A program made the position numbers and the translations under genes. Positions 14,821 to 39,418 of a DNA stretch of 39,447 nt are shown here, one piece after another. The stretch is from an uncultured bacterium. Lineage in GTDB: Bacteria > Hydrogenedentota > Hydrogenedentia > Hydrogenedentales > JAEUWI01. The stretch spans positions 1-39,447 of the forward strand of contig CAXBPH010000028.1 in NCBI GenBank assembly GCA_963977445.1, given 5' to 3'. Each line of letters starts with the position of its first letter. The stretch's first letter is position 1. The notes under the pieces are model-generated. The model saw nothing but the letters and a program-made list of their open reading frames with translations. It did not search any database and was not told where the DNA came from.

Positions 14821-17800
14821 CTATTCCAGGTACCCCAGGGATTCCAATTGTCCCGCGGTTTCCGCATCGAGCACCGTGGGCACCGTGGGTTCGATGGCGT
14901 TTTCCTCGCAAATCGTCAGATACCCTTCGATGGCCTCATCGAGCTGGGTCTGGGTCGCCACCACCCCTTCGTCACCGGCTAAATTTGTCTGCTCTCCCGG
15001 ATCTTCGGACACATTGAAAAAGGACGTAACCGGTAGCTCTCGCGGATTGTCTGCATTGGCCCGAATCAATTTGTGGGTTCCGGTGCGAATGGACTGAAGT
15101 ACGATACCTTCAAAGTTATTTTCGGCATAGCTGTAGTCGATGGTCTGATTGCTTGGATTCCAATCGCTATCGAACAACGATTGGCCCTGCATCATGGCAC
15201 CCTTTTCCAGCCCTGCAGCCTGCAACAGGGTCGGTGCGATATCGAGGTTACGTGCCAGGCTTGTATTCACCTCTGAACCCCGAAGATTGCCCGGAAGCTT
15301 CACCGCGAAGGGGATGTGGGTCTGTTCTTCATACAAGGTCTGGCCATGCCACCAACCGCCATGCTCTTGAAACTCTTCTCCATGGTCCGCCGTAAGGATA
15401 ATCAGGGCATCATCATAAAGGCCCCGTTCTTTCAAACCCTCAAAGAACTTGCCCAGTTCCCGATCGAGATATTCTATTTCGCCCATGTAGGCCTGGCGCA
15501 TACCGTCGAGGTGAATCGCGGGGTCGGGGTTACCCATGCGCTTCCGCCCGTAGCCACCACCCGGTGCTTCTGGGGCCATGAACGGGTCGTGGGGGTCCAT
15601 GAAGTGGGTAAACAAGAAATAGGGCCGGTCGGCGGGAACGCTGTCGCTGTCGAGCCAGGCAAGCACCGTGTCTTTCACGGCGGCCGCCGGCTGATAGTAG
15701 TCCGTCACCTGAATAGCCCGTCCGAGTCGCTTGTTGGCCACCTCACGGACCTTCAGGAGCACTTCATACATGGATAGCATGGCCGCAGACGGGGTCGCCC
15801 CGAAGTGAAGGGCCTTCTTCATGTCCACATACTGATTGAAACCCTGATCGTAACCGAATACGGAAGTAATGTTCGGATTGTTGGCGTAGCCCTGGGTGTA
15901 GTAGCCCCCCGCCCGCAACAGCTCCGCCACCGTCTCTACATCGCCCGGCAGGCTGGCCGTTTTCGTCACCGCCGTGTGGCACTCGGGATACATCCCGGAA
16001 AAAATAGAGCCAAAAGAGGCTTTGGTCCAGGATGCCTGCGAAAACCCGTGTTCGAAGCGTACGGCGTCGGTGAAAAACTCGTCTATGTGGGGCGTCTTCG
16101 TTTCGATCGCGCCATTGTAGGCCGGAAGATAATCCGCCCGCAGGGTATCGACCGCAATCAGAATGAGATTGGGGCCCGTGGCCGCGTCCACTGATTCCGC
16201 GATGGTCGGCTCGGATACGGGGCGGTAGCTGGTCTTGAGTAGCTGGGCCGGAATGAAAAACAGGCCATAGGCTACTACGCCGGCTACGATAAGGGTTCCT
16301 GGTTTACCCCACGACCTGCGTCCCAAGGCGCGTGCAATACCCAGTAGAAGTACGCCACCGACCAGAGCCACCACGCCCACAAAAAGTGCCAGAGATAGCA
16401 GACCGCTGCTGTCGGGCATGTGGCCGTCGTAAACATCACGACGAAGTCGAAAAAGACCAATGACCAGCCCGCCCACGATAGTCGTCCCCACAAAGGACAG
16501 GGCATAGGTCCACCAGAGGGGGGCAAATCGGTTGAAAAGCAGATAGAGGAACAAGAGGCCAAAGGCCACCCCTTTTCCTACGGCACCGAAAATCAGCCCA
16601 TAGACCACCACCGACCAGACGAATATCCCTGTGTCGGGAAGGGTACCGAGGGCATTTCCAATCCAGCCGCTTTCTACCAGCCCAATGAGCGCACCTGCAA
16701 TCATGCCCGCCATCGTACCGGCCGTTAAGGTGCCCAATACCTTGGGGCGATAGAAGGCCAACTCCTCTTGGGTGAGGTGCAGTGCCGATTCATTGCCCGT
16801 ACCAACTTTCGCCCGAACCTCAGCAATGTCTTCCAGGAGCTCGTCTCGGTTGGGCCGCCCGGTAAGGAGCAGCAGGGGGATACTCAACACAAACGGTATG
16901 ACTTCGCCAAACCACAATCCCAGGTGACCAAAAAGCAGCGCCTTGGAACTGCCTGCGGTACCCCCAAGCAATGTCACCATGACCATTTCACGAACACCAA
17001 CGCCACTGACGGTAGGCGCAAAAACGGAACCCACGATCAACAACGGGCTGGCAAAGAGGATTTCGAGGATTCCTGTATTCTCGGCGCGAATGGCCGAGGC
17101 GGTGCCAAAATACATGAGGCAGATAGCCAAATGTACACACAGCCCGAAAAACAGTGCCTTAAACAGGGCTCCCCGGTGTGCGCTATAGGCCGTCGCGGCA
17201 ATACCGAGTTTGTTCACTTTGGTGCGAACGGAATTCGGCACCGGCAGGGAAGCCATGAATATCTGGATGACCCGGGGCTGCAACAGGAGTAAGAGACTCA
17301 CCCCAATAAAGGTTGCCAACACACACAAGACCAAAGCGAGGATCACCAGATTAAAATCGAATAGTCGTAGTCCCAACGGCAGCGTGATAAAGACCAGCGA
17401 AAAAAGAGCAATAATGCCGGTTAGCTTTTCGACGGCAATGACCGTAGCACAGCGGATCGGTTCTCCGGTGTGGCGGGCGGACTCGACCAGCCGGTAGCCA
17501 TCCAGCCCGAGGGTGCCGGGCAGGAAGAGCCCGATGGCCCGCCCCCAGAACCAGCACTTGGTCAAATACCAGAAGGGAATATGAACACCCTGGGCCCGGA
17601 GCAGAATCCGCCACCGGGTAACGCCCGCAAAAATCCCCGCCAACTTTATTACCACTGCAAAAGAGAACCAGAACGCGGCGGTTTTCGGATCAATCGACTT
17701 GAGGTCGTGAAACAGTTTTCCCGGCGTTATATCCTTAAACAGATCGGGGCGAAACCCGAAGGTCTCGGGGCGAAACAACAGCACAAACAGGGAGGTGATA

Positions 17801-17871
17801 AAGGCTAACTTGGCGCTGAAAAAGAGAACGCTCTTCCAGTGATCCCGCAGCCAGACAAACATGGATTTCAT
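14821..17871 (-). CDS. Fusion: UPF0104 / lysylphosphatidylglycerol-synthase-TM (flippase-like) domain + further TM helices + sulfatase-like (alkaline phosphatase superfamily) domain
   Basis: N-terminal RWRILL..FLPGTLGLDGYR..SGVGVRE motifs. C-terminal PNLILIAVDTLRAD, TPHID, SWTKAS, HFMDPHDP, ADHGEEF, LDIAPTLL. Confidence 0.82.
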   Translation of the reverse strand: MKSMFVWLRDHWKSVLFFSAKLAFITSLFVLLFRPETFGFRPDLFKDITPGKLFHDLKSIDPKTAAFWFSFAVVIKLAGIFAGVTRWRILLRAQGVHIPFWYLTKCWFWGRAIGLFLPGTLGLDGYRLVESARHTGEPIRCATVIAVEKLTGIIALFSLVFITLPLGLRLFDFNLVILALVLCVLATFIGVSLLLLLQPRVIQIFMASLPVPNSVRTKVNKLGIAATAYSAHRGALFKALFFGLCVHLAICLMYFGTASAIRAENTGILEILFASPLLIVGSVFAPTVSGVGVREMVMVTLLGGTAGSSKALLFGHLGLWFGEVIPFVLSIPLLLLTGRPNRDELLEDIAEVRAKVGTGNESALHLTQEELAFYRPKVLGTLTAGTMAGMIAGALIGLVESGWIGNALGTLPDTGIFVWSVVVYGLIFGAVGKGVAFGLLFLYLLFNRFAPLWWTYALSFVGTTIVGGLVIGLFRLRRDVYDGHMPDSSGLLSLALFVGVVALVGGVLLLGIARALGRRSWGKPGTLIVAGVVAYGLFFIPAQLLKTSYRPVSEPTIAESVDAATGPNLILIAVDTLRADYLPAYNGAIETKTPHIDEFFTDAVRFEHGFSQASWTKASFGSIFSGMYPECHTAVTKTASLPGDVETVAELLRAGGYYTQGYANNPNITSVFGYDQGFNQYVDMKKALHFGATPSAAMLSMYEVLLKVREVANKRLGRAIQVTDYYQPAAAVKDTVLAWLDSDSVPADRPYFLFTHFMDPHDPFMAPEAPGGGYGRKRMGNPDPAIHLDGMRQAYMGEIEYLDRELGKFFEGLKERGLYDDALIILTADHGEEFQEHGGWWHGQTLYEEQTHIPFAVKLPGNLRGSEVNTSLARNLDIAPTLLQAAGLEKGAMMQGQSLFDSDWNPSNQTIDYSYAENNFEGIVLQSIRTGTHKLIRANADNPRELPVTSFFNVSEDPGEQTNLAGDEGVVATQTQLDEAIEGYLTICEENAIEPTVPTVLDAETAGQLESLGYLE

Positions 17872-18090
17872 GGTACGCTCGATTCAAGAAACAGGTAAGA
17901 TTATCCGTCGGTTGAACCTGAAAGGGTAGCATACAAAGCGCGCGAAAGGACAGTTGCGAGGTCATCAATTACGAGAGACTACCGCCCCTCGACGCCGATA
18001 CTGCTCCATGGATTGCTGCGTGGGTCATGATATGAGTTTCTGTCATGTACGGAGTTCCAGGGAATTTCATCGCCCCGTCCATGCCATCCC

Positions 18091-19488
18091 TTAGCCTTCC
18101 AGATCGTATTTCTGCAGCCGGTAGCGGAGGGAGCGTGCCGTCAGACCCAGCAGACTTGCCGCGCGCTTCTGAGAATAGCGCCCTTTTTCCAGGGCCTGTT
18201 GAATCAGATCGATCTCCAGATCGGCGATCAACTGCTCCATGTCCATCCCGCCATCGGGCACCACCGCCGCCAAGGGCGATGAAGCTACATCCCGGTCGGG
18301 CTGGTAACTGGACAGGTTTTCCGGCAGGTCATCGAGGCCAATCTGATTGTCCAGGCACAAGGCAAGCGCCCGTTCCATTACATTGCCAAGTTCACGAACG
18401 TTCCCAGGCCAATTGTAACGATTCAAAGCCGTCTGTGCCTCGGCCGATATTTCGAGGTCTTCCCGTCCCATCTTCCGTGCATGGTGTTTTACGAAGTGAC
18501 GGCACAGCAGGGGAATATCATCTTTACGATCCCGCAGCGGCGGCACCGTAATCGGAATCACGTTCAGGCGATAAAAGAGATCGCTGCGAAAGGTGCCTTC
18601 CTCGGCCATCTTCTCCAGGTCACGGTTGGTCGCCGATACAAGGCGCACATCCACCTTGATGTCCGTGGTACTGCCCACCGGCGTTACGGTGTTGTTATCC
18701 AGCACGCGGAGCAATTTCACCTGCAACATGAGTGGCATTTCGCCGATTTCATCGAGAAAAATGGTGCCCCCATTGGCCACGACAAAGAGACCTTCTTTAT
18801 CATCGGTTGCACCGGTAAAGGACCCTTTCTTGTGACCAAAGAGTTCGCTTTCCAGGAGGTTTTCGGGAATACCGCCGCAATTTATTGCCACAAAAGGCTT
18901 ATTCGCGCGGTTACTCAGATTGTGCAGCGCCCGGGCCACCAACTCCTTACCCGCACCACTTTCTCCGTGCACGGCGACCGTGCTGGGCAGGGCGGCAACG
19001 CGCCGAATCATTTTCATCACACTTTGAAAGGCCGGACTCTTGCCAATCATGTTGTCGATGTCGCCCTGTCGGGCCTGCTCTTTACGGAGTGCTATATTCT
19101 CCCGAAGCAAGTTGCGCTGGGCTATTGCGCGCTCAATCAGGATACGAATTTCATCGTTCTTGAAGGGCTTCATGATGTAGTCAGCCGCGCCGCGTTTCAT
19201 GGCCTCGATGGCCGTTTCCACCGAGCCGTGGGCCGTCATCATGATGGCCGGCGTACCGGGTGAATTGGCTTCAATCCAGCTCAAGAGCTTCATACCGGCA
19301 TTGCGGTCCTGCCCCATGTGCAAATCGGTCAACACCACATCGTAGTGCGTTGCTTCGAGCAGCTCACAGGCATTGGCCACATCATTGGCCGTTGCGACGT
19401 CATACCCGTCGTTTTGCAACACGATCTCGAGGAGTTCGCGCATACTTAATTCATCGTCCACTACCAGGACTTGCTGTTTCATCGACAC
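18091..19488 (-). CDS. pilR: Sigma-54-dependent response regulator PilR (REC-AAA+-HTH)
   Basis: VLVVDDE, GESGAGKE, ESELFGHKKGSFTGA, FLDEIGE, WPGNVREL and a Fis-type HTH. Directly downstream of the pilS-like kinase in the pilB-pilT cluster. Confidence 0.85.
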   Translation of the reverse strand: MSMKQQVLVVDDELSMRELLEIVLQNDGYDVATANDVANACELLEATHYDVVLTDLHMGQDRNAGMKLLSWIEANSPGTPAIMMTAHGSVETAIEAMKRGAADYIMKPFKNDEIRILIERAIAQRNLLRENIALRKEQARQGDIDNMIGKSPAFQSVMKMIRRVAALPSTVAVHGESGAGKELVARALHNLSNRANKPFVAINCGGIPENLLESELFGHKKGSFTGATDDKEGLFVVANGGTIFLDEIGEMPLMLQVKLLRVLDNNTVTPVGSTTDIKVDVRLVSATNRDLEKMAEEGTFRSDLFYRLNVIPITVPPLRDRKDDIPLLCRHFVKHHARKMGREDLEISAEAQTALNRYNWPGNVRELGNVMERALALCLDNQIGLDDLPENLSSYQPDRDVASSPLAAVVPDGGMDMEQLIADLEIDLIQQALEKGRYSQKRAASLLGLTARSLRYRLQKYDLEG

Positions 19489-19491
19489 CGC

Positions 19492-21141
19492 TTACGGCCT
19501 CCTTGTAGGGTCGCTGTACGCTTCGGCTGTTTCCCGGGCCTGGGGCAGGCGCACACTCATCGAGGTGCCACCGCCAGGACGAGACGCCGCCTGAATGGTT
19601 CCGTCGTGGGCCGTAATCATGCGCATGCAAATGGCAAGTCCCATACCCACACCCCGGGCTTTTTCGGTATAAAAAGGCTCAAATATCTTGGCCACTTTGT
19701 CGGGCGAAATACCCGGACCGTTGTCATTAAAGCATATTTCCATGGGGCCACGACCATCATTGTGATCCAACGTAATTTCGAGGATTCCATCTCCGGCCAT
19801 GGCTTCGATCGCATTCTGGCCCAGATTGGTAAAGACCTGCCATATTTGGGTCTTATCCCCCGTGACCAGACAGGGCTCATCGGGCGTCCGGAGCGTTATA
19901 GTCAGATCACCTTCAGCGCCATACTTCCGGCGAAGTTGCTCGTCCACTTCCCGCGCCACGTCCCTAATATCAAACAAGGCATATCGTCGACTCGGGTCGC
20001 GGGCGAAATCAAGAAACCCCGTTACGATCTCATTCAGGTGGTCCGATTCCCGGACGGCAATCGCCGCCAGACGAGACACCAAATCGGGCGAATCTATATT
20101 GCGTTGCATCTCGTCCATGCTGCCGCGAATCGACGCAACCGGATTTCTAATTTCGTGGGCAAGGCCAGCGGAAAGCTCTCCGATAACCGCCATGCGATCC
20201 TGCTGTTGCAATTCCTTGCGCATCCGGGCCATTTCCGTAAGATCGGTAAAGGACGCAATGAGTCCCGTGAGATGACCGTGAACATCCCGAATCCGGTTGG
20301 TGGTAAGGCCGAGCAGCTTGGAGGAATCAACACCAATCTGCGTATAAAATTCGTAGCTCGTAAAATCTTTTTTCAGGCGCAGGGCCGTCGTCACCGGGCA
20401 CTCGGCGCCCGACTCGGGGACGATGATGCCATCCACATGGCGACCGGCCACGTTGGCTTCCACCAGATTCAGGATGCCACAGGCGGCCTTGTTCATGGCC
20501 ACGACAAGACCCTTGGCGTCGGTTATGAGAAAGCCGCTGTTCATGTTATCCAGGATTTCCCGCTGGAACTGCTTCATCCGACTGACGCGCTGATTCCAAT
20601 AGCCGCTGATAAAGGCGGTGAAGAAAAAGGCCAATCCCTGGATGAGATAGTGGTACCAATGGGCGAGCTGGTCGTTCGCCTGCGGTGCAGTAATGAACAC
20701 CTGATAGAACATATACAGGGAGGCCATCGTTGCAAAGACAAAGCCCTGCAACAGCCCCATGAGCACACCGGCTTCGAGGATAACGATTACCAGCAGGAAC
20801 GTAAAAAAGCTGGTGTGCCCCCCCGTATAACTGATCGTGGCGGCAACCACGCCAAAATCCACCAGCACCTGGGTCCAGGTGAGAATGGCCGGCACCGAGT
20901 TGTCCCGCTTTAGAACAATTAAGTACCACATGCTGCTGGCAAATGCAGACGCGTAAATTGCCGTAAGCAGGTGACGAAAGGCCTCTTCCTCATCCGCGAC
21001 CAATTGGGCACCAATGGCCACCACGACAAGCATGCCGATGCGGGCCAGCCCCACAAACCACAGCCATGTCGACGGCCCATCATAAGACGGCCGCAGGTAA
21101 TCAAGAATCGTCGTTGTCTGTTGAAGGAGACGTCGGATCAC
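19492..21141 (-). CDS. pilS: Sensor histidine kinase PilS (TM-PAS-HisKA-HATPase)
   Basis: About 6 N-terminal TM helices, PAS, LAHEIRNP, NLGQNA, DNGPG, GVGMGLAI. Start overlaps the pilT stop. Confidence 0.83.
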   Translation of the reverse strand: MIRRLLQQTTTILDYLRPSYDGPSTWLWFVGLARIGMLVVVAIGAQLVADEEEAFRHLLTAIYASAFASSMWYLIVLKRDNSVPAILTWTQVLVDFGVVAATISYTGGHTSFFTFLLVIVILEAGVLMGLLQGFVFATMASLYMFYQVFITAPQANDQLAHWYHYLIQGLAFFFTAFISGYWNQRVSRMKQFQREILDNMNSGFLITDAKGLVVAMNKAACGILNLVEANVAGRHVDGIIVPESGAECPVTTALRLKKDFTSYEFYTQIGVDSSKLLGLTTNRIRDVHGHLTGLIASFTDLTEMARMRKELQQQDRMAVIGELSAGLAHEIRNPVASIRGSMDEMQRNIDSPDLVSRLAAIAVRESDHLNEIVTGFLDFARDPSRRYALFDIRDVAREVDEQLRRKYGAEGDLTITLRTPDEPCLVTGDKTQIWQVFTNLGQNAIEAMAGDGILEITLDHNDGRGPMEICFNDNGPGISPDKVAKIFEPFYTEKARGVGMGLAICMRMITAHDGTIQAASRPGGGTSMSVRLPQARETAEAYSDPTRRP

Positions 21142-22211
21142 ATTCCCTTTTCCATCAGGTGCTGCAGGCCTTCGGCGTCCGCACTTCGCTTGAAGGCCAT
21201 TTCCGTGGTGATAATTCCCCGCTTGGACAGGCGATAGAGGGACTGGTTCATGGTGAGCATACCCTCGCCTTTTCCAATTTCAATCATGGAGGGAATCTGC
21301 TCCAGTTTCTCGGCGCGAATCAGCGAACGAATGGCTGGGTTAGCCAACATGATTTCCATAGCAAGGGCCCGGCCCATACCATCGGCGCGGGGCACCAGCT
21401 GCTGCACCACAACGGCTTCCAACACAAAGGAGAGCTGGGTTCGTACCTGTGCCTGCTGCCCGGCGGGGAACACGTCGATAATACGGTTCATCGTCTGCAG
21501 AGCATCGTTGGTGTGGAGGGTCGCAAAGGCGAGGTGACCGGTTTCCGCCACGGTAAGGGCCGCCTGGATCGTTTCCGTATCGCGCATTTCACCAATAAGA
21601 ATTACGTCGGGATCCTGACGCAATACGCGCTTCAAGGCCGCCGAAAAAGAGTCGGTATCGGCATGAATCTCGCGCTGATTTACGACGCTTCGGTTGTGTC
21701 GGTGAAGATATTCGATGGGATCCTCAATCGTAATGATGTGTGTATTGCGCTCACGATTGATTTTGTCAATTATCGAAGCAAGGGTCGTCGATTTACCGGA
21801 ACCGGTGGGGCCGCATACCAGAACTAGCCCAAAGGGTTTATAGGCGAAATCAGCAATTACCCGGGGAAGGCCCAATTGTTCGAAGGCCAGAATCTCGAAA
21901 GGAATGGCACGAAATGCCGCCACCACCGAGCCCCGATCGCGATAGACGTTGAGACGAAATCGGCTCAGGCCTTCAATACCGAAAGACAGATCGCACTCGC
22001 GTGTCGATTCAAATTCCGCGATCTGATCTTCATTCATCACCGTATAGATGACTTCCTGGGTCTGCTCCGCCGAAAGACGTGGGTATCCAGGTAACGGTTC
22101 CAGACCACCATGGAGACGAATCATAGGCGGTGCGCCGACAACGATGTGCAAGTCACTGGCCCCGGCCTTAATCGCTTTGGTCAGCAATTCCTTGATATTC
22201 GGTGTGGACAT
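21138..22211 (-). CDS. pilT: Type IV pilus retraction ATPase PilT
   Basis: GASDLHI, GPTGSGKSTT, EDPIE, RQDPDVILIGEMRD, AETGHL, AIRSLIRA (AIRNLIRE-like). Start ATG 22211 follows GGAGG. Confidence 0.92.
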   Translation of the reverse strand: MSTPNIKELLTKAIKAGASDLHIVVGAPPMIRLHGGLEPLPGYPRLSAEQTQEVIYTVMNEDQIAEFESTRECDLSFGIEGLSRFRLNVYRDRGSVVAAFRAIPFEILAFEQLGLPRVIADFAYKPFGLVLVCGPTGSGKSTTLASIIDKINRERNTHIITIEDPIEYLHRHNRSVVNQREIHADTDSFSAALKRVLRQDPDVILIGEMRDTETIQAALTVAETGHLAFATLHTNDALQTMNRIIDVFPAGQQAQVRTQLSFVLEAVVVQQLVPRADGMGRALAMEIMLANPAIRSLIRAEKLEQIPSMIEIGKGEGMLTMNQSLYRLSKRGIITTEMAFKRSADAEGLQHLMEKGM

Positions 22212-22364
22212 TCTTCCTCCTTTGGCTGGTAATTCCCTGTGACCCAACTCGTATGTGCAACGCACGTGGCCGGTGCCAGCACCCCCCGATGCTAACCCGG
22301 CGAACACCTGCTCCGTACTATTCTCGGCAACCGATACATCGCCAAGAATCAGCGTGCAATGGGA

Positions 22365-24089
22365 TTAATCGTGTGACGTGTGTTCCAATACCTGCTCGAT
22401 AGTGGACACGCCTTTTGCTGCTTTGGCCAACCCATTTTGACGCAGGGTCTGCATACCGCAGGCGATTGCCTGATTCTTAATATCATACCCCGAGGCACGC
22501 TGCAACACGAGGGGCTGTAATTCAGGCCAGTTGAGCAAGGCCTCAATAACGGCGACACGACCACGGTAGCCCGTTTCTTTACAACGGCTGCAACCACGAC
22601 CACGAACAAATTGTATTTGTTCCAGATAGTCAAAGCCGCGCCACTGGATGCGATCCAGCACTTCCTCAGGCACATTGATGGGTTCTTTACAATCCGAACA
22701 CACCCGTTTGAATAGTCGCTGGGCAGCCGCCAGAGCAACAGACGATTGGACCAGGAAGGGCTCGATACCCATATCCATCAAACGGGGGAACACACCGGCC
22801 GCATCGTTGGTGTGGAGGGTACTCAGCACGAGGTGACCCGTCAACGCCGCTTTTACCGCAACGTCGGCCGTTTCACCGTCTCGAATTTCACCAACCATCA
22901 CGATATCCGGGTCCTGACGCAGAATCTGTCGCAAGGCCGACGCGAAGGTGAAGCCGATGGTCGATTGCACCTGTACCTGGTTTACACCGAAGAGGTCATA
23001 TTCGATGGGGTCCTCAACGGTAACCACATTGGATTCCGGTGAATTCAGTTTGTGAAGGGCACTATACAGCGTGGTCGTTTTACCCGAACCCGTGGGACCC
23101 GTCAGCAGCAACATGCCGTGGGGCAATTTGAGGGCCTCCAGCATGGCCGTAACCGGTTGGGGCTCAAAACCGAGGGTATCCAGACCGAGCGTCAGATTCG
23201 ACTGATCGAGCACACGCAACACGATCTTTTCGCCATATTTACACGGAAGGAAACCAACACGAAAGTCAATCTCGCGGCCGTTGTAGCGAATACGAAACCG
23301 TCCGTCCTGGGGCAGACGGTGCTCGTCAATTCGGCACCCACAAAGGATTTTAAATCGGGCGATGATATTCTGCTGAAGACTCTTTGGGGGCGCTTTGGCC
23401 TCTTCCAGCGTACCGTCGACACGATAGCGGACCCGGATAAGTTTTTCGAAGGGCTCCAGGTGAATATCACTGGCACCCCGCTCAAGGGCGTTGAAAAGGA
23501 TCAGACGGGCCAGCTTCTTCACGGGTTCGTCTTCTGCGCCCACTTCGAGCCGGGATACGTCTTCTATATCATCCGTTGTTTTGAGTTCTTCTACGTTGGC
23601 GTCGCCTTCTTCATGGCCCACAATTGAGGCGTAGAGATCTTCGGCCTTACCGCCACCATAGTGCTTATCAATGGCACCGGCCAACTCCGACGACACCGCC
23701 ACCACCGGCTCAATTTCGTAACTCGTCAACATCCGCAAATCATCGAGGGCCATGATATTGAGGGGGTCGGCCATGGCCAACGTCAAGACGTCGCCGGTCA
23801 CGCTCACGGGCAACATCTGGTATTGGCGGGCCAGCGTCTCGGGCACTTCGGAAAGCACCTCTTTGGGGATGGAATAGTGGGCCACGCGAATGTGGGGAAT
23901 CCCCAGCTGCTCGCTGAGGGTAATGACCAAATCCTCTTCCGATAAATATTCTTTACTCACCAGGAGACTGGGCAAGCTCATTCCCGTCTGACGGTGCAGG
24001 TTGATGCACTCCTGCAACTGTTCCTGGGTCACAAGCTGCTGCTCGAGCAACATGTCCGGCAATCGCTTCTTAGTTGCGCGTGTCGCCAT
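22365..24089 (-). CDS. pilB: Type IV pilus assembly ATPase PilB (GspE family)
   Basis: MshEN-like N-terminus, ASDIHLEP, RLPQDGR, GPTGSGKTTT, RQDPDIVMVGEIRD, tetracysteine CSDC/CSRC. Strong RBS AAGGAGG. Confidence 0.92.
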   Translation of the reverse strand: MATRATKKRLPDMLLEQQLVTQEQLQECINLHRQTGMSLPSLLVSKEYLSEEDLVITLSEQLGIPHIRVAHYSIPKEVLSEVPETLARQYQMLPVSVTGDVLTLAMADPLNIMALDDLRMLTSYEIEPVVAVSSELAGAIDKHYGGGKAEDLYASIVGHEEGDANVEELKTTDDIEDVSRLEVGAEDEPVKKLARLILFNALERGASDIHLEPFEKLIRVRYRVDGTLEEAKAPPKSLQQNIIARFKILCGCRIDEHRLPQDGRFRIRYNGREIDFRVGFLPCKYGEKIVLRVLDQSNLTLGLDTLGFEPQPVTAMLEALKLPHGMLLLTGPTGSGKTTTLYSALHKLNSPESNVVTVEDPIEYDLFGVNQVQVQSTIGFTFASALRQILRQDPDIVMVGEIRDGETADVAVKAALTGHLVLSTLHTNDAAGVFPRLMDMGIEPFLVQSSVALAAAQRLFKRVCSDCKEPINVPEEVLDRIQWRGFDYLEQIQFVRGRGCSRCKETGYRGRVAVIEALLNWPELQPLVLQRASGYDIKNQAIACGMQTLRQNGLAKAAKGVSTIEQVLEHTSHD

Positions 24090-24182
24090 GGGTGCCCTCC
24101 TTTCCTGGTATCGCGCCTGAGACGCACTTCGGTGTTACTACGGGTTTGATGTATTCAGCTGGTTGCCGTTGACTTCGTGTCA

Positions 24183-26564
24183 TCATGCCGCTTCTTCTCC
24201 CCCAATATGACTGAGAATTTCGGTCGCCATTTCCACGCTGATCGCTTCGTTGGAGAGCGCAGCGAAGGCGGTAATCTTGCGCAATGAACCCACCATTTTA
24301 CGTATATCGTCTGATACCCGCATGGCTACGAGCGAACAGATTTCTTCGGGGAGTGTCACGCCACTCTGCTGCACATGTTGGCGCAATATTTTCATGCGCG
24401 TTTCCCATTCCGGGGGCTTGAGTTCGGCCACGATGCCGCTCGCGAACCGCGATACGAGTCGTTGCTCCAAAAGCCCCAGACGATCGGGCGCTTTGTCTCC
24501 TGCAATAATAATCTGCCGACCGCGCTGGTGCAACACATTAAAAATGTGAAAGAACTCTTCCTGCGCCTCGACACGGCCCCCCATAAACTGGATGTCATCC
24601 AGGATAAGCACATCCCAATGACAATAGTTGTCCCGGAAGGCCATCTGGGCGTCGGCCGCCAACGCCTCTTTCAGTCGACGTGAAAAGTGACTGGCAGAGA
24701 CATAGCCAACCCGTTGGCCGGGATTGGTCTGTTGGATGTGATTTCCTACGGCGCTTATAAGGTGGGTCTTACCCAACCCGACGTGTCCATATAGAAAGAG
24801 GGGGTTGTATTCACTACCCGGCTTTGCGGCGACCGCCTGGCATATCTTTGTGGTAAAGGCGTTGGCTTCCCCGGGGAAAAATCGTTCAAAGGTCAGGCTC
24901 TCCAACGGCACTTCTGACTCCAAACCATCACGTACGCGGGCATCTTCCTCCGCCTGGCGGGGATCTTCTTCCCCCGCCGGGGTGGAACCGAAAGGCGATA
25001 CAGAGGCATGGGCGGCACGATTGCCGTGTTGGAGATTCTGGACCCGCTCGTTCTGTACCAAGGTCGCTTCTATGAGTTGAGAGGTTTGCTGCGACGACTC
25101 TACCGCTGCTTCAGCTATTGCGGCCAGACGGGCACCCTGGATTTCCTGAGACTGCTGGCTGGTGGTGAGGATTTCCCGAATGGAGGTCACCATACCGGTC
25201 TGCGCTTCACGCAACGCAGCGACGACCTGCTCCATTTGTGCACTGCTGTCGCCCCCGCTATTGGCACGGGTTTGCACGACGAGCGTGGCGAGAACCTCCT
25301 GCATCACGCCGCCCAGGGTGTCACGCATGGTTTCCGCAATCGCCTCCAATGACGGCGCTTCAGGCTGATCAGACTTACTGGTCGCGCGGAGTTGCACCAG
25401 CACGGTCGCGAGGGCCTCTTGCATGGCCCCACCGACGCTATCACGAATGACCTCGGCCATCGTTTCGCCAGAAAGCTGTTCGGGCGCACGGGACAAGGTG
25501 TCTGACAAGCGCTGGAGTACTTCTTCCATGCCCGATGTCGCGGGGACAGCGGGTACCGGGGCCATTGCAGGCACTTCGACCGGAGGTGGGGGTGCACTGA
25601 CCGGGGCGGGCGCGCGAACGACCCCTTTGAGTTCTTCTATGGAGGACCGAAAGGCGGCTTCCAGCCCCGACCAATCCGGTGCAGGAGCCGGGGCAGGGGT
25701 TGCAGTTGCGGCAGGAACTACGGGGGACCGGTCGGCCGATTTCAGGGCCTCCAGCACGGCTTCGCGCATTGAGGTCTGAATCATTTCGCCGAATCGCTCT
25801 ATGGGAAAGGGCGCGTTCTCGGTTGGTGCCGGTGCCCGCTGTTCCCCTAGCTGCTTACCCAGCAACTCAGCGACACCACTGAATCCTGCATGAATGGCGG
25901 AAACCAAGGCGCCGGTATCCATAGCCGCACTGGACGCAGGCGGAGCAGGAGCAGGAGCAGGAGCAGGTTTGGGCGGGGCGGGTTTGGGGGGCAAGGCACT
26001 CAGGCCCAGAGAAGCGGCGCTCATTTCACCGCTACCACCACTACCGCCACTTTTGTTCCCCGAGAAATATTTGGTCATTACCTGTTCGAAGTGCGTCCAG
26101 TTGCACAAGATAGGTTTGACGCGCAATTCAGGACAGGCCGTGCGCACCGCGTCCAGGGCGGTCACGTCCAGCGGATCCACCATGGCGATGGTCAAAATCC
26201 GGCCGAGCTTGTCGATGGGAATCAGACCGTGTTCCAGGCACAGTGCTTCGGGAACCAGCGCCAGCACGTCGCTACCCACGTCATAGTCCAGCAAGCTGAT
26301 ATGGGGAATCTTGCATTTCTTTACAAAACAGGCATTGAGTGCTTCTTGGGTTACATAATTGGATTGGACCACGATTTTTGCAAGGAAGGCCCCATTCCTT
26401 TCACGCTCCGCCCTCGCCTCGGTCAGCTGGTCCGCTGTAATAAGCTGCGCATCGACCAGTAGATCGCCGAGACTATTGAAAACAGCGCCACCACGCCCAT
26501 CCGGGTTACCGGCAGCAGACGGGTTGCCTGAGTTATCGCGATCATCGGTCATGTAAGTCGACAC
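24183..26564 (-). CDS. Fusion: PilB/GspE N-terminal (MshEN-like) domain + Pro/Ala-rich and helical linker + DnaA AAA+ domain (no DNA-binding domain IV)
   Basis: N-terminus SLGDLLVDAQLITADQL..IPIDKLGRILTIAMVDPLD parallels the adjacent PilB N-terminus (LPVSVTGDVLTLAMADPLN). C-terminus TFERF..YNPLFLYGHVGLGKTHL..LILDDIQF..QEEFFHIFN..RLVSRF..PPEWETR is DnaA domain III. Start GTG 26564 or ATG 26552. Confidence 0.9.
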   Translation of the reverse strand: MSTYMTDDRDNSGNPSAAGNPDGRGGAVFNSLGDLLVDAQLITADQLTEARAERERNGAFLAKIVVQSNYVTQEALNACFVKKCKIPHISLLDYDVGSDVLALVPEALCLEHGLIPIDKLGRILTIAMVDPLDVTALDAVRTACPELRVKPILCNWTHFEQVMTKYFSGNKSGGSGGSGEMSAASLGLSALPPKPAPPKPAPAPAPAPPASSAAMDTGALVSAIHAGFSGVAELLGKQLGEQRAPAPTENAPFPIERFGEMIQTSMREAVLEALKSADRSPVVPAATATPAPAPAPDWSGLEAAFRSSIEELKGVVRAPAPVSAPPPPVEVPAMAPVPAVPATSGMEEVLQRLSDTLSRAPEQLSGETMAEVIRDSVGGAMQEALATVLVQLRATSKSDQPEAPSLEAIAETMRDTLGGVMQEVLATLVVQTRANSGGDSSAQMEQVVAALREAQTGMVTSIREILTTSQQSQEIQGARLAAIAEAAVESSQQTSQLIEATLVQNERVQNLQHGNRAAHASVSPFGSTPAGEEDPRQAEEDARVRDGLESEVPLESLTFERFFPGEANAFTTKICQAVAAKPGSEYNPLFLYGHVGLGKTHLISAVGNHIQQTNPGQRVGYVSASHFSRRLKEALAADAQMAFRDNYCHWDVLILDDIQFMGGRVEAQEEFFHIFNVLHQRGRQIIIAGDKAPDRLGLLEQRLVSRFASGIVAELKPPEWETRMKILRQHVQQSGVTLPEEICSLVAMRVSDDIRKMVGSLRKITAFAALSNEAISVEMATEILSHIGGEEAA
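25942..25967. repeat. (GGAGCA)4 in-frame tandem repeat encoding PAPAPAPA in the fusion linker
   Basis: ggagcaggagcaggagcaggagcagg read directly. Confidence 0.85.
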
Positions 26565-26637
26565 ACTCCCTGGTACGGACGTATGGTGTCCCTGGTTGCG
26601 TGGTCTCTAAAAGTCCACGCGTATGGATCCATACTCG

Positions 26638-26666
26638 ATTGTAACATCGAGGGGAAAAACGGTCAA
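26638..26666 (-). promoter_or_regulatory. Sigma-70 promoter candidate for the DnaA-fusion/pilB cluster
   Basis: Minus strand TTGACC-17 nt-TACAAT with an extended -10 TG, about 75-85 nt upstream of the start. Confidence 0.62.
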
Positions 26667-27050
26667 ACGAAAATTCTTTACAACTTCTTTAACGTCAACG
26701 CCTTGGCCAAACTGGCAAAATAAACGAAACGCAAACAACTTCCATATGCAGACCCCGAAGGCACCAGCAACACCACATATAGATGTCTGAGATAGATTCT
26801 GATCCCCATCTCATGCGAAATATCACCTATTCTCGGCCAGGGAGTGGGCGAATATTCATAGGGCTTCTTAGTTCTTCGGCAGGAACAGGGGATTTGAGTA
26901 GCTTTAGCGTCGGCGAAATGCCTGGTTTCGACGTATTGATACACCCCGAGGGGTCTGGGTTTGCCGCACTTTGGCACCCCAACGTATACTGGGGCCTTCC
27001 CAGGCGTGCTCACTACACGCCCATACGCCCCTTGAATGACAGGAATATCT

Positions 27051-30000
27051 ATGAAACGCGGCGACATCGCAGCTCCAATATTGTTTTTAGTCCAGGCGGC
27101 ACTCGCCCTGCTCCACGCACGTAGATTGGTGCCCGATGTGCCCGGCCTCGGTGATCAGTACTTCAACATTTCCGTGCTGCCCTTATCCGAGTCCCTCCGC
27201 TCCATCCGCACCCTGGGCTACCCCCTCTTTCACGCCATCATGGAGCGCCTGGGCATCGGGCTGGAGGACTACCCGCAGGCGCAGATGCTGCTCCTCATCG
27301 GATGCTGCGCCATTTTTGCTTTCGGATTGCGAAAATATGGCCTGTCGTCCCTGAGCGCATTGGCGGCCGCCTCCCCCCTGCTCTGGGTCGTGCCCACGAC
27401 ACTGGTGATGCCCGAAACGCCGGCGAAGTGTTTTGCCATTGCCGCCATCGGGTTTTTACTCTGGTCGGCGGGCACCCGAAGCCCCGTCGCCCTCATTGGT
27501 CTTGCCGCATCCCTTTTTCTCACCTATCAGATGCGCCCCGCCTTTTTGTTCATGCTTGTCTTTCTTCCCGTGTGCTGGTGTTTCCTCTACGTGCGCCGAT
27601 GGGGCCTCATCGATCCCCGACGCGGCATACGTCAGGGACTCTACACCGCCGGGGCCTGTGTGCTGCCCCTGTTTCTGTTTTGTCTCCTCCGACTGATATT
27701 GGTCGGCCACTTTGGCCTCGTCTCTTTTGGTGGCCAGAACACGGTCGGCATTTCCGTCGAACTCCTGACGGAGGACAGCGCAAAAGCCTTACCCATGGAG
27801 GATCGGCCTCTCGCCATGCTCCTCGCCCGCGCACGAGACGGATGGCCCATTGAGCGCTTCATCACGGACCGGGGTTACCCCGATGATTGGGAGGGTATGG
27901 CCACCCAGTATTCCGCCAATGTAAATCGAATCGGGCGGGCCGTACAAGCCAAGTTTCCCCCCGCCGGAAGCTCCTCAGACAACGTAGCGCAAGACAAGGC
28001 CTTCAGTCGCATGAGTCAGCGCACCTTCATCGCGGAGTGGCGACGCTACCGCGCCTGGCTTGTTGGTGCGGCTATTGAAAGTTGTCGGGTCGCCGCCGAT
28101 CTCTCCCTCGGGGGACGGGGCGGGATGGGCTTCGGCCTTTCCAGCATACCCTCGCTGGCCATCGGGGTGGGGCTGATCGCGCTGCTGCTCCTCAGTGGAT
28201 GCATGGAACGACGGGCCTTCGGCGAAGGATCCCGCCCGTTTTCCGGCCATGGGACGACCATCGTATTGGTTCTGGCAGGACTCTTTTTCTTTTTCAAAAT
28301 GTTGCTGGTCATTCTCGTGGAACCCCCCATCCCTCGCTATGTGCAGGCCGCCTTGTTTCTCGTTCCCTCGGTGGCGTCCCTTCTCCTCTGGGAACGGTGT
28401 GTCATCCTGATGGCCGCTCTCTGTAACCGGCCCTACTGGTATGGCCAATGTCTGGTTGCCTACCCTGCGGTACCCGATGCGCACCAGCCCATCGCCTGGC
28501 GTGCCCTTGCACACGCCTGGCGACCAAGACGCCCCGTGGCAGTGACCGCGCTGGTCATTGTATTTATCGTTGCGCTGGTCGGCTGGTGGAGCACCCGGGA
28601 GGATCGCTTTTTCAAACTATTTCAGACCCGACCGGATGTCGCCCGGGAAGCCCTGATTGCCGACGCCGACTACAACACCTGGCGAGACAGCCAAGGGGCT
28701 TCGGTCCTTCACTACGGTGCCTTACTCGACGACGAAGTCCTGGTCAATCACCTACTCAATGACCCGGCACTGGGCAACATCACGTCAGACGATGAAGCGA
28801 CCCCCTTGCACTGGGTGGCCATGGGAAAGACAAACGGAAATATTGTGCCTTCCCTTATCACGGGTGGCCTTTCACCAGACGCTCCCGGGCCGCTGGGCCT
28901 CAGCCCCGTCCATCTGGCAGCCCTTTCGGGCAACGCGTCGGTGTTGACGGCGCTCCTGGACCACGGCGGAAATGCCAACGCCACAACCCCTGCCCAGGTT
29001 GCTCCCTTACATCTGGCCCAATCGGTGGCCATCGCCGCCATTTTGATGGAGCACGGTGCGGCCGTGGATGTGCCCGACGGAAGTGAGGCCACTCCCTTCA
29101 TGTGGGCCCATACGCAAAAATTGGCAAGCTTTTTCCTAGAGCAGGGTGCCGACATCAATGCCGCGGAAAACTGGCGCTCCTTCGTCCGCCAATGCACCCC
29201 ATTGCACAAAGCCGTGTACCAGAAAGACTTTCAACGGGCACGGTGGCTGTTGAAGGAGGGGGCGGATCCCAATCGGGGGGATATAAACGGCTTTACCCCG
29301 CTATTTTACGCCTTGTGGCGCAACGACCGCATCATGATTGAACTGCTTTTGGACTACGACGCCCATATTGACCAACCCGGTCGTTGGCTCACCTATAACC
29401 GAGACGATCCCACCTATCGCTTTACGGACATCTATGGAAAAACATTGGGACGCCATCCCCGACGCAACACTTTCGGAAAACTGGTGCCCGATGAGGCGGG
29501 GCTTCGTCCCCTGGACTGGGTCGCCTTTCTGGGAAACCAGGATTTAATTCGCCTGCTGGTCGATCATGGAGCTAACCTCACCTTAAAGAACGAGGAAGGC
29601 ATGTCTGCCCTGCATTGGGCCATTTTGGGCTTCCAGGGAAAGGCCGAAAAGCTCCTCGAAGGGCTTGCCAATGATCCTGCGATTTTCGATAGCGCCACCC
29701 TGCCGCTGGCGGAATTCAGGACGTCCGTACAGGCGGGACGACGTACATTTAACGAGACGGTGCCTACCGCCAAGGTCGATGCCACGTTGATGGATAAAGC
29801 CCAGCGACTCGCCGACGAATATGAGGCCGGTGCCGCCAATATTCTGGAAGGGGACGATGGGTTTCTCTTCACCCGGCAGGCCTGCCAGTTTCTCCTGCAA
29901 AAGGACCTCCGTTACGCCGAGCCCGGCATCGCCACATCGGGCCCCTCTCCCGCGATGGCCTCTATCGTCGACATCGATCACCAGTTGAAGGCCCGGGGAA

Positions 30001-30719
30001 TCCATCTCATCGTTGTCCCGGCCCCGCTGGCTATCGAATCCCATGCCGATGCGTTTTTTCCCGGCTGGGATAGGTCTCAACCGGCCTTTCCTCCCCGGGG
30101 AGAATTTATCAATGGGTTGTGTGAAGCGGGCGTAGACGCCATCGACCTCTTGCCCGCCTTTGTGGCCCACCGCCTCGCGGAGCCCGAGGATGCCCTGTAT
30201 CTGAAGGAAGATGGGCACTGGAGCAGTCTCGCCATTGGCTTGGCCGCCGATGTCCTGTCGAAAAACATACGCGCCTTAGACCTCCCCCTGGATTTGGATC
30301 GGGTGGCCTATGGGGAGGTGCTGATTGACTACGAGGCGGGCCTTACGCCTATCGCCAGGCGTCTGCCCGAATCCCATTGGGCTCGCTATGAAAATACGGT
30401 CTGGCCTGTGTCCCAAGTGCTCCAGCAAGACGGCAACCCCTATGTGGACGACGAGCAGAGCCCCGTGTTGGTCGTTGGTGACAGTTATACCCTCCTGTTC
30501 AATGAAGTCTCTGGCCACCTGAGTGCGCGTCTTGCCCAGGCCCTCGGGCGACCGGTGGCGTCTCACCTTGCCAAGGCCGCGGGCCCAACGATCCCACGGG
30601 TACTGGCGCGTAAAGGTAAGGAATACATCGACGCCCGCAAGGTGATAATATGGGTCTTCAGTTCGGGCTATATACGACCGACGGGGAATGAGCAATGGGG
30701 AAATCTGGAACTACCGTGA
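27051..30719 (+). CDS. Fusion: multi-TM membrane domain + ankyrin repeats + AlgX/AlgJ-type SGNH O-acetyltransferase-like domain
   Basis: About 11-12 TM segments, ankyrin motifs (TPLHW, SPVHLAA, APLHLA, TPLHKA, TPLFYA, SALHWA), then GDDGFLF, DGHWS and VVGDSY. Start ATG 27051 (AGGA upstream) or 27036. Confidence 0.82.
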   Translation: MKRGDIAAPILFLVQAALALLHARRLVPDVPGLGDQYFNISVLPLSESLRSIRTLGYPLFHAIMERLGIGLEDYPQAQMLLLIGCCAIFAFGLRKYGLSSLSALAAASPLLWVVPTTLVMPETPAKCFAIAAIGFLLWSAGTRSPVALIGLAASLFLTYQMRPAFLFMLVFLPVCWCFLYVRRWGLIDPRRGIRQGLYTAGACVLPLFLFCLLRLILVGHFGLVSFGGQNTVGISVELLTEDSAKALPMEDRPLAMLLARARDGWPIERFITDRGYPDDWEGMATQYSANVNRIGRAVQAKFPPAGSSSDNVAQDKAFSRMSQRTFIAEWRRYRAWLVGAAIESCRVAADLSLGGRGGMGFGLSSIPSLAIGVGLIALLLLSGCMERRAFGEGSRPFSGHGTTIVLVLAGLFFFFKMLLVILVEPPIPRYVQAALFLVPSVASLLLWERCVILMAALCNRPYWYGQCLVAYPAVPDAHQPIAWRALAHAWRPRRPVAVTALVIVFIVALVGWWSTREDRFFKLFQTRPDVAREALIADADYNTWRDSQGASVLHYGALLDDEVLVNHLLNDPALGNITSDDEATPLHWVAMGKTNGNIVPSLITGGLSPDAPGPLGLSPVHLAALSGNASVLTALLDHGGNANATTPAQVAPLHLAQSVAIAAILMEHGAAVDVPDGSEATPFMWAHTQKLASFFLEQGADINAAENWRSFVRQCTPLHKAVYQKDFQRARWLLKEGADPNRGDINGFTPLFYALWRNDRIMIELLLDYDAHIDQPGRWLTYNRDDPTYRFTDIYGKTLGRHPRRNTFGKLVPDEAGLRPLDWVAFLGNQDLIRLLVDHGANLTLKNEEGMSALHWAILGFQGKAEKLLEGLANDPAIFDSATLPLAEFRTSVQAGRRTFNETVPTAKVDATLMDKAQRLADEYEAGAANILEGDDGFLFTRQACQFLLQKDLRYAEPGIATSGPSPAMASIVDIDHQLKARGIHLIVVPAPLAIESHADAFFPGWDRSQPAFPPRGEFINGLCEAGVDAIDLLPAFVAHRLAEPEDALYLKEDGHWSSLAIGLAADVLSKNIRALDLPLDLDRVAYGEVLIDYEAGLTPIARRLPESHWARYENTVWPVSQVLQQDGNPYVDDEQSPVLVVGDSYTLLFNEVSGHLSARLAQALGRPVASHLAKAAGPTIPRVLARKGKEYIDARKVIIWVFSSGYIRPTGNEQWGNLELP

Positions 30720-38238: not shown

Positions 38239-39418
38239 CAGAATCCACCTCGCTGGTCTCATGGTCGCACAAATCGCTACGGATTTCTTCGAACACGTCT
38301 ACACTCTTTTCGAAGGCGTCAAACACGTCGGGCGCGAAATGACTTCCTTTACCTGCACTCATTTTTTCCAGCGTCAGATCCACAGAAAATGCCGACTTAT
38401 ACGCCCGCTCCGACCGGAGCGCGTCGTACACGTCCGCAATGGCGACAATTTGCCCGGACACAGGAATCTCGTTACCACGCAAGCCCTTCGGATATCCGGT
38501 ACCGTCCCATTTCTCATGGTGTGTCAATGCGATTTCCGCCGCCATGGATCGAAGGTCGAGACCCGAAGCATCATCATCATCCAGGACCTCTACAGACCGG
38601 GCGTCGTGGGGCCCGAGATATTCCATGCCCTTGGGTTTTTCCAACAGAATTGCGGCACCGATGTCACAGTGGCGCTGCATCATGTGACGTTCATCTACAG
38701 TGAGCTTACCCGACTTCAACAGAATGCCATCTGGAATGCCAATTTTTCCGATGTCGTGTAACGGGCTGGTGGCGAACAGGGCCTCTGTAAAGGCCGCATC
38801 CATTCGTAACGCGGTGGACAAAGCCCGGCTGCATGCGGCAACCCGCAACACATGCTCCCCCGTATCTTCGTCCCGAAATTCACCTGCCTTCGCCAGACGC
38901 CAGATTATGTCCAGTCGCGAATACTCAAGGGCCAGGGTTCGTTCGCATACTCTGTGTTCCAGAATCTCGTTCTGGTTGCGCAACTGGTCTTCATAGTCCT
39001 TGATCTTGGTTACGTTGCGGAGACGGGCCGTCAGGTCTTCCATGCCTACTGGCTTGTTCAACAAGTCGGTCGCCCCACAGTCCAGGGCCTTGCGCTTCAA
39101 ATCGCTTTCCGCGTTTCCGGTAAGGATGATGACTGGAATGTCCCGCGTTTTTTCATTCGATTTCAGGGCCGCCAGCAAATCGAATCCCGTCTTTTCCGGC
39201 ATGTTCACATCGGACACGATCGTGTCGAAGGCGACTTGGTCACACAACGCTAACGCGCTGTCCACGCTTTCAGCGAAATGGAGATCCCACTGGTCGCGGT
39301 AACCACGCAACATGCGACGAAGCCCTGCGAGAAAGTTTGGCTCATCATCGACAAAAAGAATTTTCTTGCGCTGATCGGTGGCCACAGTCGTATTCGGGGC
39401 GCTGGGAACAGAGGTCAC
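38216..39418 (-). CDS. REC + HD-GYP cyclic di-GMP phosphodiesterase (RpfG-like)
   Basis: ILFVDDE, RDEDTGEHV, LHDIGKIG, HHEKWDGTGYP, ADVYDAL. Confidence 0.92.
   Translation of the reverse strand: MTSVPSAPNTTVATDQRKKILFVDDEPNFLAGLRRMLRGYRDQWDLHFAESVDSALALCDQVAFDTIVSDVNMPEKTGFDLLAALKSNEKTRDIPVIILTGNAESDLKRKALDCGATDLLNKPVGMEDLTARLRNVTKIKDYEDQLRNQNEILEHRVCERTLALEYSRLDIIWRLAKAGEFRDEDTGEHVLRVAACSRALSTALRMDAAFTEALFATSPLHDIGKIGIPDGILLKSGKLTVDERHMMQRHCDIGAAILLEKPKGMEYLGPHDARSVEVLDDDDASGLDLRSMAAEIALTHHEKWDGTGYPKGLRGNEIPVSGQIVAIADVYDALRSERAYKSAFSVDLTLEKMSAGKGSHFAPDVFDAFEKSVDVFEEIRSDLCDHETSEVDSDETHSFR

Follow-up and report, generated by a model that had tools for sequence, protein, structure and literature searches.

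In this study, we analysed a fusion gene, here called FUS, in a stretch of 39,447 nucleotides (the window; CAXBPH010000028.1, assembly GCA_963977445.1) from an uncultured Hydrogenedentota bacterium of lineage JAEUWI01. FUS joins a PilB-type MshEN head, by way of a linker, to the AAA+ module (domain III) of the replication protein DnaA, and belongs to a conserved family, found in at least 67 species-level genomes and in more than 80 clusters at 50% identity, that brings DnaA domain III into a pilus operon. Our findings point, with about even confidence, to a model where FUS would be an accessory of the type IV pilus motor, a regulator or scaffold that oligomerises with ATP and was ancestrally gated by cyclic diguanylate (c-di-GMP), and not a replication initiator. 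The initial annotation, made from the DNA alone, had described a single open reading frame (ORF) of 793 amino acids with a PilB-type head, a linker and a DnaA domain III, a description borne out by the ORF map and by Pfam; the parts are as follows.

24183..26564, minus strand: fusion gene FUS, which encodes MshEN, the linker and DnaA domain III in 793 codons beginning with GTG.
26316..26474, minus strand: MshEN_N subdomain, residues 31-83, with two 24-residue c-di-GMP-type motifs and a 5-residue spacer, decayed here.
26058..26312, minus strand: MshEN_C / T2SSE_N subdomain, residues 85-169, an alpha/beta docking module conserved in PilB/GspE-type ATPases.
24930..26039, minus strand: linker, residues 176-545, with Pro/Ala-rich runs alternating with short helix-prone segments.
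25383..25460, minus strand: repeat copy 1, residues 369-394, including IRDSVGGAMQEALATVLVQLRA (49.9 bits with the repeat hidden Markov model, HMM).
25263..25343, minus strand: repeat copy 2, residues 408-434 (repeat HMM, 41.5 bits).
24987..25013, minus strand: short conserved motif AHASVSPFG (linear; residues 518-526), lying in low-complexity sequence directly N-terminal of domain III.
24186..24899, minus strand: DnaA domain III (AAA+), residues 556-793, with a conserved ...EEAA end (PF00308, PDB match and residue mapping).
24765..24788, minus strand: Walker A, GHVGLGKT, G593-T600 (sequence and mapping to E. coli DnaA).

The start codon is probably the ATG at 26552, giving a protein of 789 amino acids; the database copy (P0002) begins there, four codons past the GTG. 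Pfam assigns residues 85-169 to MshEN (PF05157, E 2.3e-15, 56.8 bits against a cutoff of 23.1) and residues 557-713 to Bac_DnaA (PF00308, E 1.1e-52), and finds neither Bac_DnaA_C (PF08299) nor DnaA_N (PF11638) in FUS even at E<=1; both were recovered in all four canonical DnaAs tested as controls (L070, L072, L075 and L077). This is the outcome that had been expected of such a search, PF05157 and PF00308 being matched and PF08299 unmatched. There is likewise no match in FUS to the T2SSE ATPase (PF00437), for which the neighbouring PilB scores 429 bits. At the N-terminus, the NCBIfam model of the MshE-type c-di-GMP motif (NF053729) covers residues 32-78 with 41 bits (cutoff 38), residues 30-170 match the N-terminal domains of PilF, PilB and MshE chains in the PDB, and the protein aligns to positions 2-141 of model TIGR02538; residues 27-172 also align to residues 5-149 of the adjacent PilB, with 30% identity over 146 amino acids and one gap. 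At the other end, residues 557-786 (230 residues) align ungapped to PDB chain 8bv3_A, 'Chromosomal replication initiator protein DnaA' (E 1e-57). The DnaA model TIGR00362 gives 283.5 bits, below its cutoff of 343.9, with residues 515-788 on model positions 66-339 of 437, and the Hda model TIGR03420 gives 110.4 bits, below its cutoff of 194.8; by these scores the C-terminal part is DnaA-like rather than Hda-like. When aligned to E. coli DnaA (from NC_000913.3), FUS ends at position 372 of 467, residues 1-374 of the E. coli protein representing domains I-III (PMC10325909). Domain I is lacking and the protein stops ahead of domain IV, as initially proposed, and the same alignment recovers the full set of AAA+ signatures named at that stage: Walker A (G593-T600), Walker B (L653-D657), sensor I (D690), the box VII arginines R702 and R706 (E. 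coli R281 and R285, the latter being the arginine finger) and sensor II (R755).

The fusion family is phylum-wide in Hydrogenedentota. Both Pfam domains are present in 118 of the 120 best database homologues, whose named organisms are Candidatus Hydrogenedentes, Hydrogenedentota or Hydrogenedens and whose annotations read 'ATP-binding protein', 'DnaA/Hda family protein' or 'chromosomal replication initiator protein DnaA'. An exhaustive search of 50%-identity representatives returned 25,803 proteins with E<=1e-3, the majority of them ordinary DnaAs; among the best 150, which were examined, 14 were already among the 120 homologues and at least 83 of the other 136 carry MshEN and one domain III. 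A protein atlas holds two clusters with both domains, named 'hypothetical protein', with Hydrogenedentota as their commonest phylum. Scanning species-representative genomes (one genome per species) gave 549 relatives, and among the best 80, which were kept (L001-L080), the fusion is present in 67 (L001-L067). Forty-five of these loci carry Hydrogenedent-type labels and 22 others, namely 'uncultured bacterium', Nitrospirales/Nitrospiraceae, one Bathyarchaeia, one Poribacteria and one plain 'metagenome'. The contigs titled Nitrospirales or Nitrospiraceae are L016-L018, L028, L032, L037, L038, L042, L044, L049, L057, L058, L063 and L064, and the one titled Bathyarchaeia archaeon is L045; since these loci have the typical Hydrogenedentota-type fusion-pilB arrangement, the labels or the binning of the metagenome-assembled genomes may be wrong. 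An assembly chimera or a decaying pseudogene, toward which a GC content of 0.65 in the linker against about 0.55 on both sides might point, is to all intents excluded: the same architecture recurs in 67 independent genome records, as well as in the database homologues and 50%-identity representatives just counted, the reading frame is intact with both domains strongly conserved, and the rise in GC fits the Ala/Pro-rich composition of the linker. Mean pairwise identity within the family is 0.64 in domain III, 0.60 in MshEN_C and 0.24 in the linker, next to 0.73 in the PilB ATPase, and both FUS domains are under strong constraint.

The gene pilB is a constant neighbour of the fusion. A phmmer search of the ORFs in every locus, with the window proteins as queries, placed pilB immediately after the fusion gene and in the same orientation in 66 of the 67 fusion loci; in the 67th (L027) the contig ends 288 nucleotides past the fusion gene. 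The survey of architecture and synteny proposed in the initial annotation came out in its favour on both counts. The median apparent gap between the two genes is 49 nucleotides. Further downstream, pilT comes after pilB in 52 loci, is missing from 10 that leave at least 2 kb of space for it, and was not decidable in 4; pilS follows in 47 loci and pilR in 45, and the fusion-pilB pair stands alone in 10. Because the flanks of L007, L021, L053 and L066, inspected with Pfam, hold otherwise unrelated neighbours, the pair is the conserved unit. The window itself presents the longer arrangement, on the same strand as FUS.

22365..24089, minus strand: pilB (MshEN and T2SSE ATPase), 93 nucleotides 3' of FUS (Pfam).
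21138..22307, minus strand: pilT-like retraction ATPase (Pfam).
19492..21141, minus strand: pilS-like histidine kinase (6TM_PilS, PAS, HisKA, HATPase_c; Pfam).
18091..19488, minus strand: pilR-like sigma-54 activator (REC, Sigma54_activat, HTH_8; Pfam).
26638..26666, minus strand: sigma-70-like promoter pattern, TTGACC-17-TACAAT with an upstream TG, 10/12, about 85 nucleotides 5' of the ATG (pattern match only).

FUS was rightly placed at the head of this pilB-pilT-pilS-pilR series, 93 nucleotides upstream of pilB, as confirmed by the ORF map and Pfam. The gap between the two (24090-24182) contains a GGAGG-type ribosome-binding site, no terminator-like site was found in it, and it shows no more RNA structure than shuffled sequences do (z 0.27). 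The 'good sigma-70 promoter' of the initial annotation holds in part: the pattern is there and is the best in the region, yet the scan counted 8 sites over 9.4 kb where shuffled sequences gave 5.9 +/- 2.4, which makes the site weak evidence. The sigma-54 promoter pattern matched 22 times where 21.5 matches were expected, and never 5' of FUS; an Rfam scan of 17800-27300 gave no riboswitch, the sole match having an E of 0.95, and PADLOC gave nothing meaningful. No dnaN, recF or gyrB occurs among the 31 window ORFs scanned with Pfam, in line with the lack of replication context reported at the outset.

Adjacency to pilB could also arise if FUS were a general regulator, dependent on c-di-GMP or ATP and with a target outside the pilus, that is co-transcribed with pilB only via shared signals. 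MshEN domains are indeed fused to many unrelated outputs, including REC, HD-GYP, CheA, CheX, cyclases, kinases and glycosyltransferases (PMC5013675), candidate c-di-GMP genes occur elsewhere in the window (GGDEF-CHASE at 9663-11030 and REC-HD-type at 38216-39418), and DnaA domain III proteins without domain IV exist that have no MshEN at all. We nonetheless consider such a role distinctly unlikely, given that the adjacency to pilB survives both the low identity of the linker and the differing other neighbours, and that the N-terminal domain is PilB-like along its full length.

The head of FUS has the same two-subdomain module as MshE, PilB and PilF, and most FUS relatives keep both of its 24-residue motifs. 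The output differs: in FUS it is a DnaA-type AAA+ domain and not a T2SSE/PilT-class ATPase. The two motifs were scored after Wang et al. (PMC5013675) in 65 FUS and 65 adjacent PilB rows, truncated or mis-anchored rows (five FUS, two PilB) being counted as misses. In motif I of FUS, position 1 is Arg, Lys or His in 52/65, Gly3 is kept in 58/65 and Gln24 in 47/65; in motif II, position 1 is Phe or Tyr in 59/65, with Gly3 in 54/65 and Gln24 in 47/65. In the adjacent PilB, on the other hand, the Gly3 position of motif I is Pro in 38/65 and Gly in 14, and that of motif II is Pro, Gln, Ala, Val or Ser, with Gly in 0/65. The backbone NH of Gly3 hydrogen-bonds guanine (PMC11731258). Given the Pro in motif I and the lack of Gly in motif II, the Hydrogenedentota PilB motor has probably lost canonical c-di-GMP binding, and the retention of Gly3 and Gln24 in FUS, set against the scarcity of Gly3 in PilB, makes the fusion look, family-wide, like the better c-di-GMP receptor of the pair. 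FimX and PilZ proteins are known as trans-acting cofactors of PilB. In the model proposed here, FUS would resemble them as a separate protein, encoded with PilB or acting on it, that brings c-di-GMP input to a PilB unable to bind it; the domains are unrelated, FUS having no PilZ, GGDEF or EAL domain and carrying an ATPase of its own.

The AAA+ domain of FUS has the fold of the DnaA clade, and Walker A and B, the sensors and the box VII arginines are common to both. Residues were counted in 65 FUS rows in E. coli DnaA numbering, with ten canonical DnaAs (four confirmed by Pfam) as controls. The equivalents of K178, T179, D235, D236, R285 and R334 are invariant (65/65), the D269 equivalent is present in 64/65 and that of R281 in 62/65, and a hydrophobic residue is kept at the AID-2 position L290. 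Other positions have diverged. In E. coli, V211 of the H-motif and R245 of the B-motif bind single-stranded DNA (ssDNA) (PMC10325909); in FUS the former shows no constraint (Ala 25, Lys 7, Ser 6, Thr 5, Met 5 and others; Lys in the window) and the latter is Glu in 58/65, the window included, and R227 of AID-1 is replaced by Cys in 56/65. The ten canonical DnaAs have Ile or Val, Arg and Arg, respectively, at these three positions, and Glu at E204, a position considered below. By this residue pattern the module retains nucleotide binding and the inter-protomer finger without the DNA contacts. FUS departs from DnaA in lacking domains I and IV, in its altered H- and B-motif, AID-1 and E204 residues, in falling below the TIGR00362 cutoff, and in having pilB rather than dnaN as its genomic partner.

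Hda (or HdaA), the regulatory inactivator related to DnaA, and FUS are both DnaA-family AAA+ proteins without a DNA-binding domain that keep the arginine finger, FUS R706 aligning with R285 of E. coli DnaA and with an Arg of E. coli Hda. Yet FUS keeps the Walker A Lys and both Walker B Asp residues, which are Arg and Asp-Asn in E. coli Hda; FUS also keeps the stretch at positions 216-227 of E. coli DnaA that is missing from E. coli Hda in the alignment; and FUS, with its MshEN domain and repeat linker, is about three times longer and falls below the TIGR03420 cutoff. The N-terminal beta-clamp-binding motif of Hda has a QL[SP]LPL-type consensus. No Hda-type motif of this kind (QL[SDPN]L[FPL] or QL.LF) was found in any of 60 full-length FUS members (0/60).

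Between the two domains, the linker is highly variable, ranging from 45 to 752 amino acids in the family (median 342; 370 in the window). A 27-residue repeat, with an apparent helix, Gly-Gly, helix pattern, occurs in 1-8 copies in the linkers of 201 of 257 family proteins and in two copies in the window, as detected with the repeat HMM. The linker gave no match in Pfam, and in the PDB only matches with E >= 0.06. Within the AHASVSPFG motif, F525 is invariant and V522 and G526 are at least 90% conserved in the family alignment; a strict regular expression for the whole motif finds it in 31/67 loci only. An Ala-Ala C-terminus is present in 53/67 loci and in 112/120 database homologues, and not in the PilB proteins. 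The cell-cycle regulator CtrA is listed with a ...NAA degron, and ClpX reads poly-Ala tags (PMC8138137); the Ala-Ala end resembles both, and one may guess at a regulated proteolysis of FUS.

Related to the long-linker fusions is a family of short forms, 58 proteins of 400-500 amino acids assigned, where named, to Poribacteria or Abyssubacteria. In a quick, unrooted maximum-likelihood tree of 193 domain III rows, the fusions with long linkers group in one clade (104 rows; approximate likelihood-ratio support, SH-aLRT, 99). The short forms (L066, L067, P0198, P0226, P0200 and others) branch just outside it, and the two together make up a clade of 112 rows with support 89. On the other side of the tree lie canonical DnaAs, Hda, the DUF835 fusions and the proteins with tandem domains III, and five MshEN-bearing rows and the giant proteins described below have an unresolved placement on the canonical-DnaA side. 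In the short forms, motif I is KLG-type (Lys at position 1 in 53/58, Gly3 in 49/58) and motif II FLG-type (Phe at position 1 in 57/58, Gly3 in 58/58). In this they are like PilF GSPII-B, which has Lys and Leu at these two first positions and binds c-di-GMP about 83-fold tighter than MshEN, so that Lys or a hydrophobic residue there can go with very tight binding (PMC11731258). No Ala-Ala end was found among the 58 short forms, and both short-form loci, L066 and L067, have pilB-pilT-pilS-pilR downstream. The likely history, as read from these sequences, is that a c-di-GMP-binding PilB head joined DnaA domain III beside pilB, after which the Hydrogenedentota line acquired the repeats in its linker and the Ala-Ala terminus, and the ssDNA residues were lost. 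By score, the closest canonical DnaAs are those of Acidimicrobiia, Clostridia and Chloroflexota, and are uninformative about Hydrogenedentota.

The short forms also bear on whether FUS might handle DNA for a competence-type pilus, its AAA+ filament binding incoming ssDNA at the pilus base. DnaA domain III does bind ssDNA via the H- and B-motifs noted above, and the short forms, which at both loci adjoin pilB, keep a hydrophobic residue at position 211 (Leu 48, Ile 6; n=58) and a basic one at 245 (Arg 40, Lys 7). The long forms, that of the window included, have lost these residues, and neither the window nor any of the four scanned flanks showed a gene of the comEA, comEC or dprA type. We thus regard a DNA-handling role as improbable; it fits the short forms better than the window protein.

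Returning to the regulator or scaffold of the pilus motor that we favour, the parts of FUS suggest how it might operate. The PilB-type MshEN head would dock FUS at the partner used by the PilB N-terminus, either the cytoplasmic platform or PilB itself, and, judging by its motifs, would sense c-di-GMP in most relatives. The DnaA-derived AAA+ domain would, by homology, provide an ATP-dependent oligomerisation switch; since the nucleotide site is complete and the arginine finger is present, head-to-tail self-assembly like that of DnaA domain III may be expected. The variable repeat linker would set the distance or valency between docking domain and oligomer, and FUS would thereby govern the time or place at which the PilB extension motor engages. 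Within the clade of the window, FUS probably works without c-di-GMP input, the motifs having decayed. Of the two possibilities initially offered, a regulator of the true DnaA and a repurposed ATPase within the pilus system, the second is the one we favour, given the constant pilB neighbour, the lost ssDNA residues and the absence of the clamp motif. The initial annotation had not noted the phylum-wide spread of the family, the repeats of the linker, the c-di-GMP motifs kept in most relatives and decayed here, or the many other DnaA domain III proteins that lack domain IV.

Several observations weigh against this interpretation. Gene neighbourhood alone is no proof of a shared machine, and there is no pilM, pilC or pilA inside the window for comparison. 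The motifs of the window MshEN read SLG...R and FLA...K, scoring 7/11 and 5/11 under the strict pattern, position 1 being Ser, positions 21 and 24 Arg, and the Gly3 of motif II Ala, and they miss even the relaxed published pattern (PMC5013675) at several positions; as this decay is common to the window's clade (the window and L001-L005), c-di-GMP input is doubtful for the window protein. The residue equivalent to E204 is Ser in 63/65 FUS rows, and the E204Q substitution lowers the ATPase activity of E. coli DnaA (PMC5319796); because of this replacement, ATP turnover of FUS may be slow or need a partner. The arginine-finger face stays DnaA-like (R281, R285 and the hydrophobic residue at 290), so that an interaction with the real DnaA is conceivable. 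Finally, given the H/B-like residues kept by the short forms, the ancestor may have bound ssDNA.

Some of these same features are what a coupler between pilus and replication would display, that is, a protein whose domain III caps or co-polymerises with the real DnaA, in Hda-like or dominant negative fashion, such that pilus activity, surface contact or c-di-GMP would modulate replication initiation. The conserved finger face would suit this role, as would a domain III much nearer to DnaA than to Hda that keeps the 216-227 segment wanting in Hda; the Ser at E204 recalls regulators which supply a finger instead of hydrolysing a nucleotide of their own, and the Ala-Ala end recalls the CtrA degron. 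We judge a coupler unlikely, as the clamp-binding motif is wanting throughout, the AID-1 Arg has mostly become Cys, neither the window nor any of the four flanks inspected contains replication genes, and pilB is the only constant neighbour. The signalling routes known in Caulobacter are indirect. The more specific and slightly less likely version would be a physical link from pilus to origin, with the DnaA-derived module captured by the type IV pilus system and tethered at the pilus base by the c-di-GMP-binding PilB-type head on a repeat 'ruler', its intact arginine finger engaging the cell's DnaA-ATP, and pilus activity or surface contact thereby timing replication.

DnaA domain III is commonly viewed as a dedicated replication-origin machine, and Hda is, to our knowledge, its only well-known offshoot. 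Should FUS regulate PilB, it would represent a new class of pilus motor cofactor and extend the outputs of MshEN c-di-GMP receptors by a new one, all within a phylum without a genetic model; should it engage DnaA, it would provide a direct link from surface behaviour to the cell cycle. Under either reading, the annotation 'chromosomal replication initiator protein DnaA' is misleading for the fusion genes. In agreement with the initial annotation, which knew of no characterised protein of this kind, no description of an MshEN and DnaA domain III architecture was found in the full-text literature searched, which lacks most subscription journals.

Other proteins share with FUS a Bac_DnaA domain without Bac_DnaA_C, and suggest that reuse of this AAA+ module is more frequent than recognised. 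P0199, P0205, P0208, P0210, P0213 and others, of about 570-700 amino acids, carry two domains III in tandem and have no domain I, domain IV or MshEN (P0199, from Gemmatimonadota, is labelled 'AAA family ATPase'); P0245 and P0248 combine domain III with DUF835 (PF05763), again without domain IV; and the proteins at L068:9938-11797 and L069:9947-11827, from Auribacterota and an unclassified bacterium, have 619-626 amino acids, with domain III at the extreme N-terminus followed by about 370 unannotated residues. Those represented by P0199, P0245, P0248, L068 and L069 differ from FUS in having no MshEN and in falling outside the fusion clade, on the canonical-DnaA side of the tree. The giants P0163 (1990 amino acids), P0172 (1876) and P0214 (1248) bear an N-terminal MshEN and two DnaA domains III, one right after MshEN and the other near the C-terminus. 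No characterised example of the tandem type, the DUF835 type or the L068/L069 type was found in the literature searched.

Elsewhere in the window, there are three candidate c-di-GMP signalling genes, all on the minus strand: the CHASE-GGDEF cyclase (9663-11030) and the REC-HD protein (HD_5; 38216-39418) already mentioned, and a REC-HDOD protein at 36985-38262. A second PilT-class ATPase of 496 amino acids (13269-14759, plus strand) carries an N-terminal extension of about 250 amino acids without a Pfam match. Divergent from FUS lies a gene for a protein of 1227 amino acids (27036-30719, plus strand) with ankyrin repeats and, at its C-terminus, an SGNH domain of the AlgX type, kept at the same place in L002 and L003. 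Just 3' of pilR, a 1016-residue protein (14821-17871, minus strand) fuses an LPG_synthase_TM region to a sulfatase domain; it has a full-length counterpart at the same place in L002 and L003, and weaker or partial matches at that place in L004, L005 and L015, and on the opposite strand in L040.

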